In this document: positions 24,296 to 39,200 of the stretch, one piece after another
Layout: every line of letters starts with the position of its first letter
Position numbering within the stretch: the first letter of the stretch is position 1
Source of the DNA: Deltaproteobacteria bacterium
GTDB taxonomy: Bacteria; Desulfobacterota_D; UBA1144; Nemesobacterales; Nemesobacteraceae
Reading direction: 5' to 3'
Assembly: GCA_029262295.1 (NCBI GenBank)
Contig: JAJCZR010000011.1
Coordinates: 802-64,801 of the forward strand
Length of the DNA: 64,000 bases
Notes under the pieces: generated by a model
The model's input: the letters and a program-made list of their open reading frames with translations, nothing else
Databases searched by the model: none
Told to the model about the DNA's origin: nothing
Made by a program: the position numbers and the translations under genes

Positions 24296-27200
24296 TTAAT
24301 ACCCCAAATTAGGCTGCAACCATTTTTCTGTTTCTTTAATAGACTGCCCTTTTCTTTTTGCATAGTCTTCAACCTGATCTTCTAGGATTTTACCAAGATT
24401 AAAGTATCGTGATTCAGGATGTGCAAAGTAAAAACCTGAAACAGAACTTGGAGGGTTCATTGCATAGCTTTCAGTAAGGGTAATTCCCGTATGCTTTTCA
24501 GCATCAAGAAGTTTCCAAAGAATTCCCTTTTCAGTATGATCTGGACATGAAGGATATCCAGGAGCTGGCCTGATTCCTCTGTATTTCTCGTCTATCAGTT
24601 CTTCGTTATCAAGGTTTTCTTTTTTCCCGTAGCCCCAAATTTCCCTTACTTTTTTATGTATCATCTCAGTCATTGCCTCAGCAATTCTATCGCCAAGGGC
24701 CTGTATCATTATGGCAGTATAATCATCGTTATTATTTTTAAATTCTTTTGAATACTCATCTACTTTACTTCCAGAAGTTACTGCAAATCCTCCAATATAA
24801 TCAATTTTGCCAATTTCTTTTGGAATAATAAAATCAGAAAGGCAGTAAAAAGTTTGATCATTAGCTTTTTTTCTCTGGCCTTGTTGCCTTAAGAAATGAA
24901 CAGTTTTAATAATTTGCGACCTGGACTCATCAGAGTATATCTCGATATCATCCCCTACCCTGTTTGCTGGCCATATTCCAACAATAGCTGATGGATTAAA
25001 TTTTTTTTCATTAACAATCTCACCAAGAAGCTTCTCAGCATCATTATAAAGTTCTCTTGCCTGTTTGCCCCATTTTGGATTATCCAATATTTTTGGAAAA
25101 GAACCTTTTAGTTCCCAAGTCCAGAAAAATGGTGACCAGTCAAAATAATTGACCACTTCTTCAAGATCAATATCATTAAAATGAATTAACCCGGTCTGAG
25201 ATGGCACATCAGGAGTATAACTCTCCCAATCTGCATTAAATCCTTTTTTCCTTGCTTCATTTATTGAGACATAATCTATTTTAGTCTTACTTTGTTCAAA
25301 CCTTTCTCTTTGCTTTTGCTGAGTTTCTTTTAACTTATCTTTATATTCATCCACTTTCTTTGGGTTAAGAAGATCATTACACACATTAACAACCAAAGAG
25401 GCATCCTGCACATGATCCACAACTCCATTGTAATGAGGTGCTATTTTGATTGCAGTATGAGCACTGCTTGTTGTAGCCCCACCAATTAAAAGTGGAATAT
25501 CAAGCTTCAGTCTTTCCATCTCTGTGGCGTTATAAGCCATTTCATCGAGAGAGGGGGTAATAAGTCCACTTAGTCCAATAATATTCGCCCCAACTTCTTT
25601 TGCTGTGTTAAGGATTTTTTCACAAGGAACCATTACACCTAGATCAATTACCTCATAGTCGTTACAGGAAAGAACAACTGATACAATATTTTTTCCAATA
25701 TCATGTACATCGCCCTTTACAGTGGCAATCACAAATTTGCCTTTTACTTTTTTATCTGCTTGATCTTCTTCATCTTCCATAAAAGGAGTAAGATAGGCAA
25801 CTGCCTTTTTCATTACACGTGCACTTTTAACTACCTGTGGTAAAAACATCTTACCTTCTCCAAAGAGCTTACCTACAAACTTCATTCCATCCATAAGTGG
25901 TCCTTCTATAACATCAAGTGGCCTGGGAAATTTTTGTCTTGCTTCTTCTGTGTCATCCTCAACGAAATCGGCTATACCATTTACAAGTGCATAACTAAGT
26001 CTCTTCTCGACAGGGTTACTTCGCCACTTCTTCTCTTCTTTCTTCTTATCCTCACTTTTTTGTCCTTTGAACTGCTCTGCAAATTCAACGAGATTCTCTG
26101 TTGCTTCAGATGTTTTGTTTAAAAGAACATCTTCAACTTTTTGAAGGAGCTGCTCTTCAACATCATCGTATACAGCAAGCATACCGGCATTTACAATCCC
26201 CATATCAAGCCCTGCATTAATAGCATGATATAAAAATGCACTGTGCATTGCTTCCCTTACAATATTGTTTCCACGAAGCGAAAATGAAACATTACTTACG
26301 CCACCGCTTGTAAGTGCCTCTGGACACTTTTCCTTTATTTCTCTCACAGATTCAATAAAATCGACAGCGTAATTGTTATGTTCTTCAATTCCCGTGGCCA
26401 CAGTCAAAATATTAGGGTCAAAGATAATATCACTTGGCTCCATTCCAACTTGTTCAGTCAGTATTTTATAAGCCCTCTCACATATTCTTACTTTATCTTC
26501 TTTATTTGCAGCCTGTCCTTTTTCATCAAATGCCATCACAACAACAGCAGCACCATAACGCATTACTTTTTTTGCCTGTTCAATGAACTTTTCTTCTCCT
26601 TCTTTCATGCTTATTGAGTTAACAATACATTTCCCCTGAACGCATCTAAGGCCAGCTTCAATTACAGAAAATTTGGAACTATCTATCATTATGGGCACTT
26701 TTGCTATATCAGGTTCTGAAGCGATTAGGTTTAAGAACCTCTCCATACAGGCTTCGCTATCAAGAAGTCCTTCATCAAAATTCACATCTATTATATTTGC
26801 CCCATTTTCAACCTGCTGGAGCGCAACACTAAGTGCCGACTCATAATCATCATCTTTTACTAATTTAGCGAATCTTGGGGAACCTGTAACATTGGTTCTC
26901 TCCCCCACCATAATAAAAGGAGAGTCTTTTTCATTTTTTATTGTTAGTGGTTCAAGGCCACTCAATCTTGTAGCGGGTTCAATATCCGGGATTTTTCTTG
27001 GTGGATGATCCTTAATTGTTTTAACGATTTCACCTATATGATCAGGAGTCGTTCCACAGCAGCCACCAACCATGTTTAAAAAACCACTTTTTCCAAAATC
27101 ATCGAGAAGCTCTGCTGTAATATTTGGTGTTTGATCGTAGCCTGTTTCGCTAAGTGGATTTGGAAGACCTGCATTTGGATAGCAACTAATAAAACAGTCG

Positions 27201-28009
27201 GCTATATTGGAAAGTTCCTGTATATAAGGCCTCATATCTTCTGCACCTAATGCACAGTTAATACCAACGCTTAGAGGCCTTGCGTGCCTAACTGAGTTCC
27301 AAAACGCCCCGATAGTCTGCCCAGACAAGGTTCTGCCAGATTGATCTGTAATTGTAGCTGAAAGCATTACAGGAAGTCTTTTTCCAATATCTTCAAAAAG
27401 CTTTTCAATCGCAAAAATAGCTGCTTTCAAATTGAGTGTATCAAATGTTGTTTCAGGAAGCAGTATATCTACTCCGCCTTCTACAAGAGCTTCTGCCTGC
27501 TCATAGTAAGCTTCAACCAATTCTTCAAATGAAACGGCGCGAAATGCCGGATCATTTACATCCGGCGACATTGAAGCAGTTTTATTTGTTGGGCCCATTG
27601 CCCCTGCAACAAAACATTCACGCCCAGGATTCTCGTCCATTATTTGCCTGGCTACTTTTTTTGCAAGTTGAGCAGATTTAATATTTAAATCTTTTACAAC
27701 ACTTTCAAGCCCATAATCTGCCTGTGCAATGGAAGTGGAACTAAAAGTATTTGTCTCAACAATATCAGAGCCTGCTTCAAAATATTGGCGGTGAATTTCA
27801 GAAATAATATCAGGTCTAGTTAGAGAAAGAAGGTCGTTATTCCCCTTGAGATCAAGATTATGATCTTTAAATATTTCTCCTCTGAAATCCTCTTCTTCCA
27901 AGGTATGGCGCTGTATCATTGTGCCCATTGCACCATCTAAAAAGAGTATTCTTTCAGCGAGGAGTCTCTCTAATTTTTTATAAGTATCCGTTTTTTTTAA
28001 ACTATTCAT
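24296..28009 (-). CDS. metH: Cobalamin-dependent methionine synthase
   Basis: [25 protein letters not shown]12 motif [20 protein letters not shown]. Confidence 0.98.
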
Positions 28010-28067: not shown

Positions 28068-28859
28068 TCACCAACTATTACGTAGCTCTCTTAACTTAAC
28101 AAAGACAGACTTTGGATCATCAGACATATCAGGGTCGTTTTTCTTTAGACCACTAATTATATTTGGATCATCCAAACGCATAAAAGGATTGTAAGTTTTT
28201 TCTTCACCTATTGTTGTAATTTTCTCGCCATTTTTTTCAACTTCTTTCAGTTTATCTTTTGCAGCCTGGTTATCTGGGGCAATACTCAAGGCAAACTTAA
28301 GATTATTTTCAGCATATCTGTGGCCTACAAGGAGTTTTAGGTTATCATCAAAACCCATAATTTTATTTGCAAAAGTAGTGTAAAGAATTTCAGGATCACC
28401 TCCATATCTGGTGTTTCCACAACCTGAAACAAAAACTGTATCTCCTATAAACAAATAATTCCCAATTTTTAAAGTTACGTGCTCAGGACAATGCCCTGGT
28501 GTATGGATTACTTTTATTGAATGTCTTCCAAAGCTTATTTCATCTCCATCTTCAATTGTTTCACTTCTGGGAGAAACATTATCCAGGCCTTTCTCGTGAA
28601 CAAGTATCTTGGACTCAAGGAAAACTTTAATTACCGGGTCATTTCCATGAATATGATCAGGATGAGTATGTGTATTTACAACATAATTAACCCTAAAATC
28701 ATTTTCCCTGATGATTTGCATAATTGTAATTACGTCAAATGGATCAATTACCAGACACTCTTTTGTTTCATCACAACTGATTATATAATTGTAGTTACTT
28801 CCGCTTTGCTCAGCAAGAAACCTGTGAATTGTAAAACCGTCTTCATTAATAATATGCAT
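28068..28859 (-). CDS. gloB: Hydroxyacylglutathione hydrolase (glyoxalase II)
   Basis: THTHPDHIHG metallo-beta-lactamase motif, TPGH, GDTVFVSGCG, EEKTYNPFMR. Confidence 0.85.
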   Translation of the reverse strand: MHIINEDGFTIHRFLAEQSGSNYNYIISCDETKECLVIDPFDVITIMQIIRENDFRVNYVVNTHTHPDHIHGNDPVIKVFLESKILVHEKGLDNVSPRSETIEDGDEISFGRHSIKVIHTPGHCPEHVTLKIGNYLFIGDTVFVSGCGNTRYGGDPEILYTTFANKIMGFDDNLKLLVGHRYAENNLKFALSIAPDNQAAKDKLKEVEKNGEKITTIGEEKTYNPFMRLDDPNIISGLKKNDPDMSDDPKSVFVKLRELRNSW

Positions 28860-28918: not shown

Positions 28919-29314
28919 ATGAATTTAATACCAATAAATATAATTGCAATACTACTTTTATTTGTGTCATGTGCAAAAGAAGAAATTGCCCCTGAATTCA
29001 ATATTCCGGGTATAAAAACCACAATTGCAAGAATTCAAATTTCCCCGCTTGCCCATGATGGTGCAAGAGTTGTAGTGACCGGATTTATTAAAAGCATTGA
29101 ACCTACAATAAAAGATGGGGAATCACACAAACTTATACTCTCTGACATTAAAGACAACAAAATAGAGATAGAATATAGTTCTGATTTTACAGGGGAAGTG
29201 GGAGAGCAGGTAGTAACCGGTGGATTATATAAAATGGATGTTAACAGGATTGTGGATGCAGAGGTTTACAGGTTTACAGTTGAAGATGATGTTATAAAAC
29301 CCCTTGAGAACTAA
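28919..29314 (+). CDS. Hypothetical lipoprotein, possible OB fold
   Basis: Signal peptide ending LFVSC; VVVTGFI...VVTGG.Y strand pattern. Confidence 0.65.
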   Translation: MNLIPINIIAILLLFVSCAKEEIAPEFNIPGIKTTIARIQISPLAHDGARVVVTGFIKSIEPTIKDGESHKLILSDIKDNKIEIEYSSDFTGEVGEQVVTGGLYKMDVNRIVDAEVYRFTVEDDVIKPLEN

Positions 29315-29326
29315 CAAATCCCAACT

Positions 29327-29355
29327 TTGACAACAATATTAATTATAGGTAATTT
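29327..29355 (+). promoter_or_regulatory. Sigma70-like promoter of the thrC-like/moaD-like pair
   Basis: TTGACA (29327-29332), N17, TAATTT. Confidence 0.5.
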
Positions 29356-29388
29356 TTACTGCTTTTATCAGCTTTTACGGGAAAATTT

Positions 29389-30624
29389 ATGAGTTTTGTT
29401 GAATCATTAAAATGTAAGGAATGCGGAGAGATATACCCAAAAGAGCCAATTCATGTTTGTGAAATATGCTTTGGACCACTTGAAGTAGTTTATAATTACG
29501 AAAAGATAAAATCCGTTTTAACAAAAGAGAAAATCTTATCCCGAAAGAAAAATATTTGGAGATATGCAGAGCTTCTTCCCATAGATGAGGCTCCAACCCT
29601 TGGGACCCAGGTTGGCTATACACCGCTTGTTAAAGCAGACAATCTTGCAAAAGCATTAGGAGTAAAAGAACTTTACGTAAAGAATGATGCGGTTTGCTAC
29701 CCCACTCTATCTTTTAAAGACAGGGTTGTATCAGTAGCACTTTCAAAGGCAAAAGAGTTTGGTTTTGATACAACTGGTTGTGCATCAACTGGAAACCTCG
29801 CAAATTCTGTTTCTTCAATTTCAGCATCAGGGAATTTAAAGAGTTTTATTTTTATTCCATATGATCTTGAACCCTCAAAGATAATGAACACATCTGTATA
29901 TGGAGCAAATGTAATTGCAATTAATGGAACTTATGACGATGTTAACAGACTTTGCAGTGAGATAGCCGGTGAATACGGCTGGGCATTTGTAAATATCAAT
30001 ATGAGGCCATATTACTCTGAAGGTTCTAAATCATATGCCTATGAAATAATGGAGCAACTCGGCTGGAAAACCCCCAAACATATTGTCTCACCAATGGCAA
30101 GTGGCTCACTTTTAACTAAAATCTGGAAAGCTATTAAGGAATTTGAACTTCTTGAATTCATTGAACCTTCTGATACAAAAGTTTATGGGGCACAGGCTAC
30201 AGGTTGTTCTCCAATATCCACTGCACTAAAAAACGGCTGGGAGATATATAAACCAGTAAAACCTGATACAATAGCCAAATCCCTTGCTATAGGCACGCCA
30301 GCTGATGGTTTTTATGCTATGAGCGTGATGAAAGAAAGCGGCGGCTGGGCTGAAGATGTAAGTGACCAGGAAATTATTGATGCAATTAAACTTCTTGCTG
30401 AGACTGAAGGTATATACACTGAAACGGCAGGCGGGGTTACCCTTGGCGTTGCAAAAAAACTTATTGAACAAAATAAAATACCGAAAGATGAATCTATTGT
30501 GGTTTGTATCACTGGAAATGGTTTAAAAACACAAGATGCAGTTGAAAGCAGTATTTCTAAACCGCATACTATTGAAGCTGACATAAAAGAGTTTCAGGAA
30601 CTTTATAAAAAATTAGAAAATTAG
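29389..30624 (+). CDS. thrC: Threonine synthase-like PLP enzyme (fold type II)
   Basis: N-terminal CKEC...CEIC ribbon, PTLSFKDR PLP lysine, ASTGNLA, ITGNGLK. Confidence 0.85.
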   Translation: MSFVESLKCKECGEIYPKEPIHVCEICFGPLEVVYNYEKIKSVLTKEKILSRKKNIWRYAELLPIDEAPTLGTQVGYTPLVKADNLAKALGVKELYVKNDAVCYPTLSFKDRVVSVALSKAKEFGFDTTGCASTGNLANSVSSISASGNLKSFIFIPYDLEPSKIMNTSVYGANVIAINGTYDDVNRLCSEIAGEYGWAFVNINMRPYYSEGSKSYAYEIMEQLGWKTPKHIVSPMASGSLLTKIWKAIKEFELLEFIEPSDTKVYGAQATGCSPISTALKNGWEIYKPVKPDTIAKSLAIGTPADGFYAMSVMKESGGWAEDVSDQEIIDAIKLLAETEGIYTETAGGVTLGVAKKLIEQNKIPKDESIVVCITGNGLKTQDAVESSISKPHTIEADIKEFQELYKKLEN

Positions 30625-30634
30625 GAGAAATATT

Positions 30635-30910
30635 ATGGCTACAGTAAGAATTCCAACACCATTAAGAAAACTTTCCGCAGATAGAGACGAGCTTGATATA
30701 AGTGCTGCAAATGTTTCAGAAATGATCGAAAAGCTTGAACAGGAATGCCCAGGGATAAAAGACAGAATTTGTGATGAGAATGGTGAAGTGCGGAGATTTA
30801 TCAATCTTTATGTTAACAATGAAGATATAAGGTTTCTTGATGGAAAAGACACAAAACTTGAAGATAATGATTCAGTTTCAATTATTCCGGCAATAGCTGG
30901 CGGGATATAA
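30635..30910 (+). CDS. MoaD/ThiS/CysO-family ubiquitin-like sulfur carrier
   Basis: VRIPTPLRK, RRFINLYVNNEDIRFL, C-terminal IIPAIAGGI; GGAG SD, 10 nt after thrC. Confidence 0.9.
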   Translation: MATVRIPTPLRKLSADRDELDISAANVSEMIEKLEQECPGIKDRICDENGEVRRFINLYVNNEDIRFLDGKDTKLEDNDSVSIIPAIAGGI

Positions 30911-32012: not shown

Positions 32013-33926
32013 TTATTCTGGATCTTGATCCAATTCAATGTCAATTGGATCAGGTTTAGGATCAAGTTCTAACTTTAGCTCTTCTTCCTGTTCAGGAGCA
32101 GGCTGTTCTGATCCTTGGGATTTTTTACTTTTTCCATATATTGATTCAGCAAATTTATATGAGATCTCTTGAAGACTATCATAAGCGCTTTTTATAGTTA
32201 AATAGTCATTTGAAGAAAGATTTTCTTTTAAATTTGCAATTGCGGCATCAATCCTTACTTCCATGTCGCTGCTGATTTTATCAGGATAAGACTTTATTGT
32301 TTTTTCAACTGAGTAAATAAGGCCATCCGATTGATTTATAAGAAGTGCAATTTCTTTTTTCTCAGCATCCGTTTCTGAACTCTCTTCACTTTTGGCAATA
32401 ATTTCCTTTAGTTCATCATCATTTAATCCACCTGAATTAACTACTTCGACTTCCTGTTTTTTACCTGTGCCAAGATCTTTTGCAGAAACATTTAAAATAC
32501 CATCCACATCTATTTCAAAAGTAACTTCAATTTGGGGAACACCTCTTGGAGAAGGCGGGATTCCAACAAGGTTAAAATTTGCAAGTGATATATTATCACC
32601 CACCATCTCACGCTCTCCCTGCAATACATGGATACCCACAAAATCCTGGTTATCAAATGCAGTAGTAAAAACCCTGCTTCTTCTTGTAGGAATAGTGGTA
32701 TTCCTGTCAATAATCCTTGTAAAAATACCTCCCTTGACTTCTACCCCTAAAGATAAGGGTACAACATCAAGTAAAAGCACCTCATCAATTTTTCCTTCCA
32801 GTACCCCACCCTGTATGGCTGCACCAATCGCAACCACCTCTTCAGGGTTGATATTCATTTGTGGTTCTTTACCAAATATTTCTTCAACCTTTGATTTTAC
32901 TTTAGGCATCCTTGACATTCCACCCACAAGCACAACTTCATCAATTTCCTCTTTTTTAATATGAGAATCCTCTATTGCTTGTCTGCATGGTATCTCCAGT
33001 CTATCAATAAGATCATGAACCATCTCTTCGAGCTGCCCTCTTGTAATAGCAACGTTCAGATGTTTTGGCCCTGTTGAATCAACAGCTATAAAAGGCAAAT
33101 TAATATTTGTTTCCATTACCGAAGATAGTTCATGCTTTGCCTTTTCAGAAACTTCTTTAATTCTTTGAAGTGCCATTTTGTCTTCTCTAAGATCAATATC
33201 GTTTTCTTTTTCAAACTCTGCTATTACAAATTCCAGGAGCCTTTGATCAAAGTCATCACCACCTAGAAATGTGTCTCCACTAGTGGATTTTACATTAAAA
33301 ACGCCATTTGCTATTTCTAGTATTGTAATATCAAAAGTACCGCCACCAAGGTCAAATACCGATATGATTTTGTTTTCTTTTTTGTCAAGTCCATAAGCAA
33401 GTGCAGCAGCAGTGGGCTCATTAATAATCCTTTTAACATTAAGGCCTGCAAGCTTGCCAGCATCTTTTGTAGCCTGTCTTTGTATATCATTAAAGTGTGC
33501 GGGAACAGTAATAACTGCCTCATTAATATCATATCCAAGATACTCTTCTGCTATCATCTTCATTTTAGAAAGAATAATTGATGATATTTCCTGTGGACTA
33601 TAGGTATTTTCAGCAACTTTTACCCAGGCATCCCCGGAATCCGAAGAAACCAGTTCAAATGGAACAAGTTTTTGCATTTTATCAACTTCTGCCGACTCAA
33701 GCTTTCTGCCAATAAGCCTTTTTACAGCAAAAATCGACCTGTATGGATTTACAAGTGCCTGCCTTTTTGCGATAGCACCTGCAATCTTTGATCCATCTTC
33801 TGTAAAAGCTACCACCGAAGGAGTGATCCTGTTTCCTTCTTCATTTGGTATTACAAATGGTGAGCCAGCTTCTATGATCGCAATACAAGAGTTTGTTGTG
33901 CCTAAATCTATTCCTACTATAGCCAT
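32013..33926 (-). CDS. dnaK: Hsp70/DnaK paralog 2
   Basis: [40 protein letters not shown]; non-canonical C-terminal tail. Confidence 0.93.

Positions 33927-37247: not shown

Positions 37248-39200
<1,953 letters not shown>

Follow-up and report, generated by a model that had tools for sequence, protein, structure and literature searches.

A predicted MetM/MetO-type gene pair near metH in a Dadabacteria genome, a candidate route from O-phosphohomoserine to homocysteine

In Streptomyces albulus, homocysteine is produced from O-phosphohomoserine by MetM, MetO, Mec and MoeZ, according to published summaries (Hasebe 2024, AEM 90:e0124724, in PMC13759103 and PMC12172450). MetM is a homologue of threonine synthase (ThrC), is 'often misannotated' as threonine synthase (GapMind 2026, PMC13759103), and its pathway with MetO is now part of GapMind (PMC13759103). 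These sources (PMC13759103, PMC12172450) list MetM as dependent on MetO thiocarboxylate, place a SAM riboswitch in front of S. albulus metM and report cyanobacterial copies without one. They also (PMC13759103, PMC12172450) give 51.6% identity to S. albulus MetM for cyanobacterial homologues that have a metO-like gene beside them, and record for a cyanobacterial homologue assayed in vitro weak threonine synthase activity, threonine deaminase activity and no clear MetM activity with sulfide. A second protein-thiocarboxylate-dependent synthesis of homocysteine, that of HcyS, HcyD, HcyF and MetY in Wolinella succinogenes, is credited to earlier work (Krishnamoorthy & Begley 2011, J Am Chem Soc 133:379, as cited in PMC5764234).

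The stretch of DNA analysed here (the window, 64,000 nucleotides in all) contains a gene pair which resembles metM and metO. The features concerned are as follows.

24296..28009, minus strand: metH, cobalamin-dependent methionine synthase, 1237 aa, an open reading frame divergent from the pair
28068..28859, minus strand: GloB-like MBL-fold thioesterase, 263 aa, from TIGR03413 and HAGH_C matches
29315..29388, plus strand: upstream intergenic region, 74 nt, containing TTGACA at 29327-29332
29389..30624, plus strand: MetM-like ThrC-fold PLP enzyme, 411 aa, from PALP and thrC models
30622..30637, plus strand: enzyme-carrier junction, TAG stop overlapping AGGAG, with ATG 7 nt on
30635..30910, plus strand: MetO-like sulfur carrier, CysO-type ThiS/MoaD beta-grasp, 91 aa, from ThiS PF02597
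30905..30907, plus strand: ATA codon for Ile91, a one-residue cap after Gly89-Gly90, read from the sequence

The ThrC-like enzyme and the ubiquitin-like carrier which the earlier note had described are both present as open reading frames with the expected family matches. In profile searches the 411-aa enzyme matched PALP (E 1.6e-69) and the thrC model TIGR00260, where its 278 bits exceed the curated cut-off of 167 bits, and its fold is settled by its similarity in sequence to ThrCs of known structure (E 1e-53). It carries an N-terminal CxxC...CxxC zinc ribbon (C9, C12, C24 and C27), and its PLP lysine is K110. The 91-aa carrier matched ThiS PF02597 (E 1.5e-15), its best PDB matches being 4n6e_B, at the top, and M. 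tuberculosis CysO 3dwg_C, with E of about 1e-17 (7e-17 for CysO), and no other ThiS-family gene turned up in the assembly. We predict that the 411-aa enzyme is a homocysteine synthase using O-phosphohomoserine and carrier thiocarboxylate, and we are fairly confident, on the strength of homology, that enzyme and carrier form a MetM/MetO-type pair which would make homocysteine from O-phosphohomoserine.

The carrier begins 10 nt after the enzyme open reading frame on the same strand, and since the enzyme stop overlaps an AGGAG Shine-Dalgarno sequence 7 nt before the carrier ATG, a two-gene unit is plausible; this overlap suggests that translation of the carrier is coupled to that of the enzyme. 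The promoter of its own that the earlier note gave to the unit was not confirmed: a perfect TTGACA in the 74-nt leader is spaced by 17 nt from a poor -10 (TAATTT), and a consensus scan called no plus-strand promoter in the leader, nor any plus-strand promoter or terminator around the pair. Read-through from upstream is possible, because a 131-aa open reading frame preceding the pair lies on the same strand. No riboswitch was found in the window or the leader, either at the Rfam gathering level or at E<=1. On the other side of the pair, the carrier stop lies 6 nt from the stop of a convergent dnaJ.

The carrier ends in PAIAGG-I-stop, encoded as GGC GGG ATA TAA, with a single residue beyond the diglycine, exactly as first noticed. 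Adenylation of the C-terminal glycine of the carrier requires that Ile91 first be cut off. HcyS of Wolinella reportedly also has one extra C-terminal residue, which is removed by a metalloprotease. We had considered the isoleucine cap as a conserved, specific feature, and rejected this because close relatives end otherwise: a 90%-identical relative ends in GG-REK, an 82%-identical one in plain GG, plain GG is found in 21 of the 29 relatives listed in the order, and fusions of the carrier of the form GG-NIL also occur among the relatives. A NIL-domain partner for the pair was likewise considered and dropped, as a search of this genome found no such gene.

The simplest alternative is that the 411-aa enzyme is an ordinary or redundant threonine synthase, the carrier serving CysM or MetY, and that their adjacency is meaningless. 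The database name of the enzyme is indeed threonine synthase, the label given to its gene in every source record seen, and a second ThrC, looked for elsewhere in the genome as the earlier note had suggested, was found on contig C24 (456 aa) and scored lower on TIGR00260 (222 bits) than the 411-aa enzyme. The TIGR00260 model is one that cannot tell MetM from ThrC. In a tree, five solved ThrCs (1uim, 2zsj, 6cgq, 2d1f and 1e5x) and the C24 paralogue were separated from the clade of the 411-aa enzyme with SH-aLRT support of 97-100; the C24 ThrC grouped with Arabidopsis ThrC (support 100), whereas the 411-aa enzyme was joined (support 97) by cyanobacterial homologues and a riboswitch-controlled actinobacterial homologue. 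The motifs follow the same division. The solved ThrCs read PTGSFKDRG, STGNT and N-S-x-N-P-x-R-x-EGQKT, and all ThrC motifs are kept in these five and in the C24 paralogue, while the 411-aa enzyme and 109 of 110 clade members read PT[LF]SFKDRV, STGN[LV] and NxNxRP[YF]Y-EGSKT. The 411-aa enzyme itself does not keep the canonical set of STGNT, N-S-x-N-P-x-R-x-EGQKT and the GNAGN loop, which we take to function in phosphate and PLP binding, and has in their places STGNL, NINMRPYYSEGSKS and, at the position of the loop, ASGSL. At the positions of T88, S155, N157 and R160 of Thermus thermophilus ThrC (numbered from the 1uim sequence) it reads L, IN, R and Y. ThrC-family genes number exactly two in each of the 31 genomes of the order, alongside a single carrier, so that both paralogues have been retained throughout. 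The weak threonine synthase activity reported for the cyanobacterial homologue, and a CysM operon in this genome without a carrier of its own, speak for a threonine synthase; the retention of both paralogues, the replaced motifs, the maintenance of carrier adjacency across more than 10 phyla and the presence of SAM riboswitches, rather than threonine-linked controls, in front of homologues speak against it, and we regard this explanation as very unlikely.

The remaining genes which a MetM/MetO-type pair would need were found outside the window, on other contigs. The earlier note had seen no MoeZ/MoeB or JAMM gene in the window and had proposed a search of the genome for both, and the only matches proved to lie on contigs C32 and C17, respectively. 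MoeZ, the single ThiF-family gene of the genome, encodes 387 aa with a C-terminal rhodanese domain and a C-H-H-G-G-R loop, and scored 499-536 bits on MoeZ/MoeB models. The JAMM peptidase, the single Prok-JAB gene (75 bits), has an intact H-x-H-P-x7-S-x2-D motif, adjoins cysM in a tusA-cysM-JAMM operon, and has counterparts in 30 of the 31 genomes of the order. No carrier gene was found in this operon or in 12 counterparts of it in relatives, and its CysM is closer to that of E. coli (233 bits) than to that of M. tuberculosis (178 bits). O-phosphohomoserine could be supplied by a homoserine kinase of the TIGR02535 type on contig C65 (530 bits, the cut-off being 446), classical thrB being absent from the genome (40 bits).

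The search for other homocysteine routes, also prompted by the earlier note, had a mixed outcome. A metX gene and a C-terminal fragment of metY, cut by the contig end, were found at the end of contig C4, which led us to reject the idea that this genome depends on the pair alone for homocysteine; in this strain there is probably another route, and because metX and the metY fragment are also present, prototrophy can be explained here without the pair. Among the relatives, many of them closed genomes, 26 of 30 had no Cys/Met-type (MetY-type) PLP enzyme at the family cut-off, and for this reason the pair is probably their only route to homocysteine.

From homology and gene context, the following sequence of steps can be proposed. 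The carrier would be made with its GG-Ile end, Ile91 would be trimmed by the single JAMM peptidase, and MoeZ would then adenylate Gly90 and convert it to the thiocarboxylate. The 411-aa enzyme would bind O-phosphohomoserine from the TIGR02535-type kinase and eliminate phosphate in the manner of threonine synthase, after which the carrier thiocarboxylate, in place of water at C-beta, would attack C-gamma to give carrier-bound homocysteine. Homocysteine could then be freed by hydrolysis, either directly or, once an S-to-N acyl shift has taken place, through cleavage by JAMM, and MetH would methylate it to methionine. The proposal in the earlier note of an O-phosphohomoserine sulfhydrylase which works with a thiocarboxylated carrier and feeds MetH agrees, as far as sequence comparison goes, with the published MetM/MetO pathway. 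As the only carrier, the 91-aa protein probably also serves CysM of the tusA-cysM-JAMM operon. We put forward more tentatively, as a possibility we hold to be less likely than not, that in Dadabacteria one carrier supplies both MetM for homocysteine and CysM for cysteine, forming a single thiocarboxylate pool and the sole homocysteine route in most of the order.

Gene order in homologous loci bears on whether the carrier is needed at all. An alternative in which the 411-aa enzyme makes homocysteine from O-phosphohomoserine with free sulfide, the carrier being dispensable or mainly for CysM, would be in line with the use of free sulfide by MetY, CysK and similar sulfhydrylases, with the 8 of 80 homologous loci that have no carrier nearby, and with the actinobacterial locus L104, where a riboswitch is present and an adjacent carrier is absent. 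Against this, the carrier is immediately downstream here (and probably translationally coupled), directly downstream in all 30 relatives of the order, and a same-strand downstream neighbour in 72 of the 80 loci, which span more than 10 phyla; published MetM, moreover, is listed as MetO-thiocarboxylate-dependent. Synthesis with free sulfide is in our judgement very improbable. ThiF/MoeZ, CysM, JAMM and NIL genes recur in the homologous clusters.

Identity of the 411-aa enzyme was 54-58% to carrier-linked cyanobacterial homologues and 50% to a Micromonosporaceae homologue. A search seeded with the latter returned Micromonosporaceae only, and a tblastn search against plasmids with an actinobacterial homologue as seed yielded nothing beyond haloarchaeal thrC genes and a Nonomuraea chromosome. 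Any kinship of the pair with S. albulus MetM (A0A059WBP2) and MetO (A0A059W7F4) is a transitive one, suggested for the 411-aa enzyme through the cyanobacterial homologues and the riboswitch-controlled actinobacterial homologue of its clade. Of 17 loci scanned, 6, the actinobacterial one included, have a SAM-I riboswitch (RF00162) directly upstream of the homologue. This riboswitch is probably not a defining feature of MetM/MetO systems, since the cyanobacterial copies are also reported to be without it.

A further alternative is that the pair makes some other sulfur compound, for which cysteate, a thiolated secondary metabolite and cysteine derived from O-phosphoserine are examples. Cysteate synthase is itself a ThrC-fold enzyme, to the model of which the 411-aa enzyme gave a weak match (62 bits), and CysO-type carriers also occur in thiosugar and thioquinolobactin pathways, 4n6e_B being the best PDB match of this one. 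However, the riboswitches in front of homologues indicate a link with methionine, the pair belongs to the core genome and is conserved across the order beside metH, a dedicated CysM exists in the genome, and no other homocysteine route was found in most relatives. A different product accordingly appears highly improbable, and a MetM/MetO-type pair remains our preferred reading.

The distance of 1.4 kb from the pair to metH given in the earlier note is correct (1,380 nt from the metH start to the enzyme ATG), and 5 of 6 closed relatives retain the linkage. As evidence it is weak, because the region in its entirety is syntenic across the order, and it may reflect nothing but this order-wide synteny. 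The intervening GloB-like gene, whose product scored 166 bits on TIGR03413, below the cut-off, invariably separates metH from the pair within the order (in 6 of 6 relatives and at loci L160-L164), and none of the 80 loci from other phyla contains it. In a bolder extension of the scheme, this thioesterase could release homocysteine from the carrier thioester.

The pathway itself is no new discovery; the pair is most likely, to judge from its homologues, a Dadabacteria copy of the known MetM/MetO pathway. The label 'threonine synthase' would lead automated reconstructions to give Dadabacteria two threonine synthases, and those of 26 of 30 relatives would lack a homocysteine route and wrongly predict methionine auxotrophy. 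Read as MetM and MetO, the pair would fill this homocysteine gap in a lineage that is widespread in marine habitats and biofilms, and would carry the Streptomyces pathway of 2024 into a further phylum, in a minimal version that has a single, probably shared carrier and neither a riboswitch nor a NIL partner.

Compared with MetM/MetO of S. albulus, the locus has the same ThrC-homologous PLP enzyme adjoining a CysO-like carrier; at other sites the genome likewise encodes MoeZ (ThiF and rhodanese), a JAMM/Mec peptidase and a distinct, canonical ThrC, a supply of O-phosphohomoserine is present, and the enzyme is labelled threonine synthase. The locus differs in that no SAM riboswitch precedes the pair, in that the carrier is Ile-capped and, as the only ThiS-family protein of the genome, probably shared with CysM, and in its homoserine kinase, which is of the phosphoglycerate-mutase-like TIGR02535 type, as well as in its phylum, Dadabacteria.

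With the CysO/CysM/Mec/MoeZ system of M. tuberculosis, which makes cysteine from O-phosphoserine and CysO thiocarboxylate, it shares a carrier most similar to CysO, a CysM-JAMM operon, MoeZ and, as predicted here, the attack of a thiocarboxylate on a PLP-bound intermediate. In contrast, the carrier adjoins a ThrC-fold enzyme and not CysM, the predicted substrate is O-phosphohomoserine (a gamma-replacement), and the CysM operon is carrier-less, its CysM being nearer the E. coli type.

The Wolinella HcyS system likewise leads from a protein thiocarboxylate to homocysteine, as would the pair, and the extra residue of HcyS is a precedent for the GG-Ile cap. MetY, however, is a fold-type I enzyme acting on O-acetylhomoserine, while a ThrC fold and, by prediction, O-phosphohomoserine are used here; the metY fragment and metX at the end of C4 are unlinked to the carrier, and the carrier is kept in the 26 of 30 relatives without MetY at the cut-off.

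With canonical ThrC, finally, the 411-aa enzyme shares its fold, the PLP lysine motif SFKDR, E-values to solved ThrCs reaching 1e-53 and probably both the substrate and the phosphate-elimination half-reaction, but it stands in a separate, well-supported clade which is carrier-linked and, in homologues, SAM-regulated.

The enzyme and carrier genes described in the earlier note are both real, and the features of this part of the window are as follows.

29389..30624, plus strand: ThrC-fold PLP enzyme, 411 aa (PALP, E 1.6e-69; thrC TIGR00260, 278 bits)
30635..30910, plus strand: sulfur carrier, 91 aa, ThiS-family beta-grasp (E 1.5e-15)
24296..28009, minus strand: metH, start 1,380 nt from the enzyme gene

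The enzyme scored over the TIGR00260 cut-off (167 bits) and carries a CxxC...CxxC zinc ribbon at its N-terminus, and the closest solved structures to the carrier were M. tuberculosis CysO (3dwg_C) and the carrier in 4n6e (E about 1e-17). The carrier ends PAIAGG-I-stop, one residue past the diglycine as had been stated, and metH indeed lies 1.4 kb away. An AGGAG 7 nt ahead of the carrier ATG is overlapped by the TAG stop of the enzyme gene. The claim that the pair has its own promoter was not borne out, as a perfect TTGACA (29327-29332) is joined by a poor -10 and a promoter scan made no call on the plus strand upstream of the pair; a riboswitch search of the window and the leader of the pair also found none. 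Directly upstream on the same strand is a 131-aa ORF (28919-29314, plus) that matched no family and has a lipoprotein-like signal (…LLFVSC); close relatives keep it at the same place (132-133 aa in loci L160-L164). The window also holds two HSP70 (DnaK-like) genes 3.3 kb apart (32013-33926 and 37248-39173, minus); the first sits between dnaJ and grpE in the source genus, and in the sister genus dnaJ adjoins grpE with no HSP70 between them.

One alternative is that the window enzyme is an ordinary ThrC. The source genome (Dadabacteria-like, judging by what its close hits are called; 2.2 Mb, 98.8% complete) encodes two proteins over the thrC cut-off, the window enzyme and a 456-aa protein on contig C24, so that the second thrC sought in the genome is present; each of 30 relatives from the same order likewise has exactly two ThrC-family genes. 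In a tree of five solved threonine synthases (B. subtilis, Aquifex, T. thermophilus, M. tuberculosis and Arabidopsis), exhaustive-search representatives and named loci, the C24 paralogue paired with Arabidopsis ThrC (support 100), the solved bacterial ThrCs formed their own clade (support 98) and the window enzyme fell in a separate clade (support 97) with cyanobacterial homologues and the Micromonosporaceae homologue P0127. The motifs common to all solved ThrCs (PTGSFKDRG, STGNT and N-S-x-N-P-x-R-x-EGQKT) include T88, N154, S155 and R160 in T. thermophilus numbering, which we take to bind the substrate phosphate, and read PTLSFKDRV, STGNL and NINMRPYYSEGSKS in the window enzyme. Variant motifs were found in 109 of the 110 members of its clade, the lone exception being a true ThrC whose gene adjoins a MetM-like gene. 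A published account reports weak in vitro threonine synthase and deaminase activity for one cyanobacterial homologue, which favours the ordinary ThrC; against this, the motif changes and conserved second ThrC, with the synteny and riboswitches described next, leave that reading disfavoured.

We compared 80 homologous loci from other phyla (54-67% identity; Verrucomicrobiota, Planctomycetota, Nitrospinota, Acidobacteriota, Cyanobacteriota, Chloroflexota and others), and in 72 a same-strand CysO-like carrier gene follows the enzyme gene. Other genes found repeatedly in these clusters encode ThiF/MoeZ (16 loci), CysM (11), JAMM (4) and NIL-domain proteins (23). In 6 of 17 scanned loci, the actinobacterial one among them, the ThrC-like gene is immediately preceded by a SAM-I riboswitch (RF00162, 71-89 bits). 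This is independent evidence for placing the clade in methionine rather than threonine metabolism. Two further alternatives, a homocysteine synthase using sulfide and a pair that yields another sulfur product, are likewise disfavoured by the motif changes, synteny, riboswitches and conserved second ThrC. Three loci encode the carrier as a ThiS-GG-NIL fusion of 171-190 aa (L026 5288-5803; L031 3326-3856; L032 5274-5846), and 20 more have stand-alone NIL proteins or other ORFs that contain NIL; the source genome has no NIL protein. A Thermodesulfovibrio MAG (L034 148-4756) has, in order, a MetM-like gene, carrier (GG-RGI), NIL, canonical thrC and a TIGR02535-type homoserine kinase, placing the O-phosphohomoserine producer beside both its consumers. 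A MetM-like gene is also present in an Aquificaceae MAG (L065 148-1377); Price et al. 2018 (PMC5764234) counted Aquifex among organisms without a known homocysteine pathway, a gap that this family may therefore fill.

The remaining pathway genes lie on other contigs.

L017 846-2478 (contig C17): operon of overlapping tusA-like, cysM and JAMM genes, JAMM overlapping the end of cysM
L019 3760-5151 (last 1.4 kb of contig C4): metX, 385 aa, 502 bits

Both the MoeZ-rhodanese and the JAMM peptidase that the earlier note would have sought were found: the only ThiF-family gene encodes a MoeZ of 387 aa that includes a rhodanese domain (contig C32), and the only JAMM peptidase, whose metal motif is intact, is that on C17. 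The C17 operon has no sulfur-carrier gene, and its CysM resembles the E. coli enzyme more closely than the CysO-dependent one of M. tuberculosis. With Pfam and a permissive custom profile, the window carrier was the only ThiS-family protein in the genome and, being the only one, probably also feeds CysM. Classical thrB is absent, and a phosphoglycerate-mutase-like homoserine kinase scored 530 bits. The search for metA/metX/metY/metB was answered in part: metX is present, and ahead of it stands a gene for a metY-type homocysteine synthase that runs off the end of C4, leaving just the last 76 residues; no further metY pieces were found in the assembly. Given metX and this fragment, the strain probably also retains the classical direct-sulfhydrylation route.

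Across the order, the ThrC-like gene is followed by the carrier gene in all 30 relatives, each with exactly one carrier, and 30 of the order's 31 genomes, counting the source, have a JAMM gene. All 12 relatives' loci inspected have the tusA-cysM-JAMM operon without a carrier, with moeZ directly downstream in two. A search for MetY-type enzymes gave a match over the family cut-off in only 4 of the 30; the others, many single-contig, gave weak matches alone (E 1e-4 or worse up to 6e-10), taken here to be unrelated aminotransferases. With no match over the cut-off, the pair appears in these genomes as the sole visible source of homocysteine for MetH. Among six closed relatives, metH adjoins the pair in five and a GloB-like MBL hydrolase in all six, which is weak evidence because the entire neighbourhood is syntenic in the order. 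In the window this GloB-like MBL-fold thioesterase (28068-28859, minus) scored 166 bits, under the glyoxalase II cut-off; in the order, though not in other phyla, its gene always separates metH from the MetM-like gene, and the protein could conceivably hydrolyse a carrier-homocysteine thioester.

What follows Gly-Gly varies between carriers. Where the enzyme is 90% identical to that of the window, one relative's carrier ends in GG-REK, and where it is 82% identical, another's ends in plain GG. Of the 29 listed relatives in the order, 21 have carriers ending in GG, and others end in GG-R, GG-N, GG-Y, GG-VVN and similar; carriers from other phyla extend past GG by anything from nothing to an entire NIL domain. 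The cap looks like a neutral, removable extension rather than a regulatory feature, and the JAMM peptidase is the obvious candidate for trimming it. JAMM is also kept alongside uncapped carriers and so must have another role, probably, like Mec, in freeing the carrier-bound amino acid.

In the proposed mechanism, JAMM would take off Ile91, MoeZ would adenylate and then thiocarboxylate Gly90, and the window enzyme would eliminate phosphate from O-phosphohomoserine as ThrC does. Unlike in ThrC, the carrier thiocarboxylate would then add at C-gamma; homocysteine would be freed by hydrolysis and pass to methionine via MetH.

Motifs, tree, synteny, riboswitches and the second ThrC support reading the pair as a MetM/MetO-type homocysteine synthase, and with it the suggested carrier-dependent route from O-phosphohomoserine to homocysteine for MetH. 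That suggestion is a rediscovery of the Streptomyces albulus pathway published in 2024 (Hasebe 2024), not a new pathway. According to a cyanobacterial study, a Microcystis 'ThrC' with an adjoining metO-like gene shares 51.6% identity with S. albulus MetM but lacks the SAM riboswitch of the latter. Specific to the window are the minimal form, with neither riboswitch nor NIL partner, the labile one-residue cap, a single, probably shared carrier, and the apparent dependence on a MetM/MetO-type route across the order.
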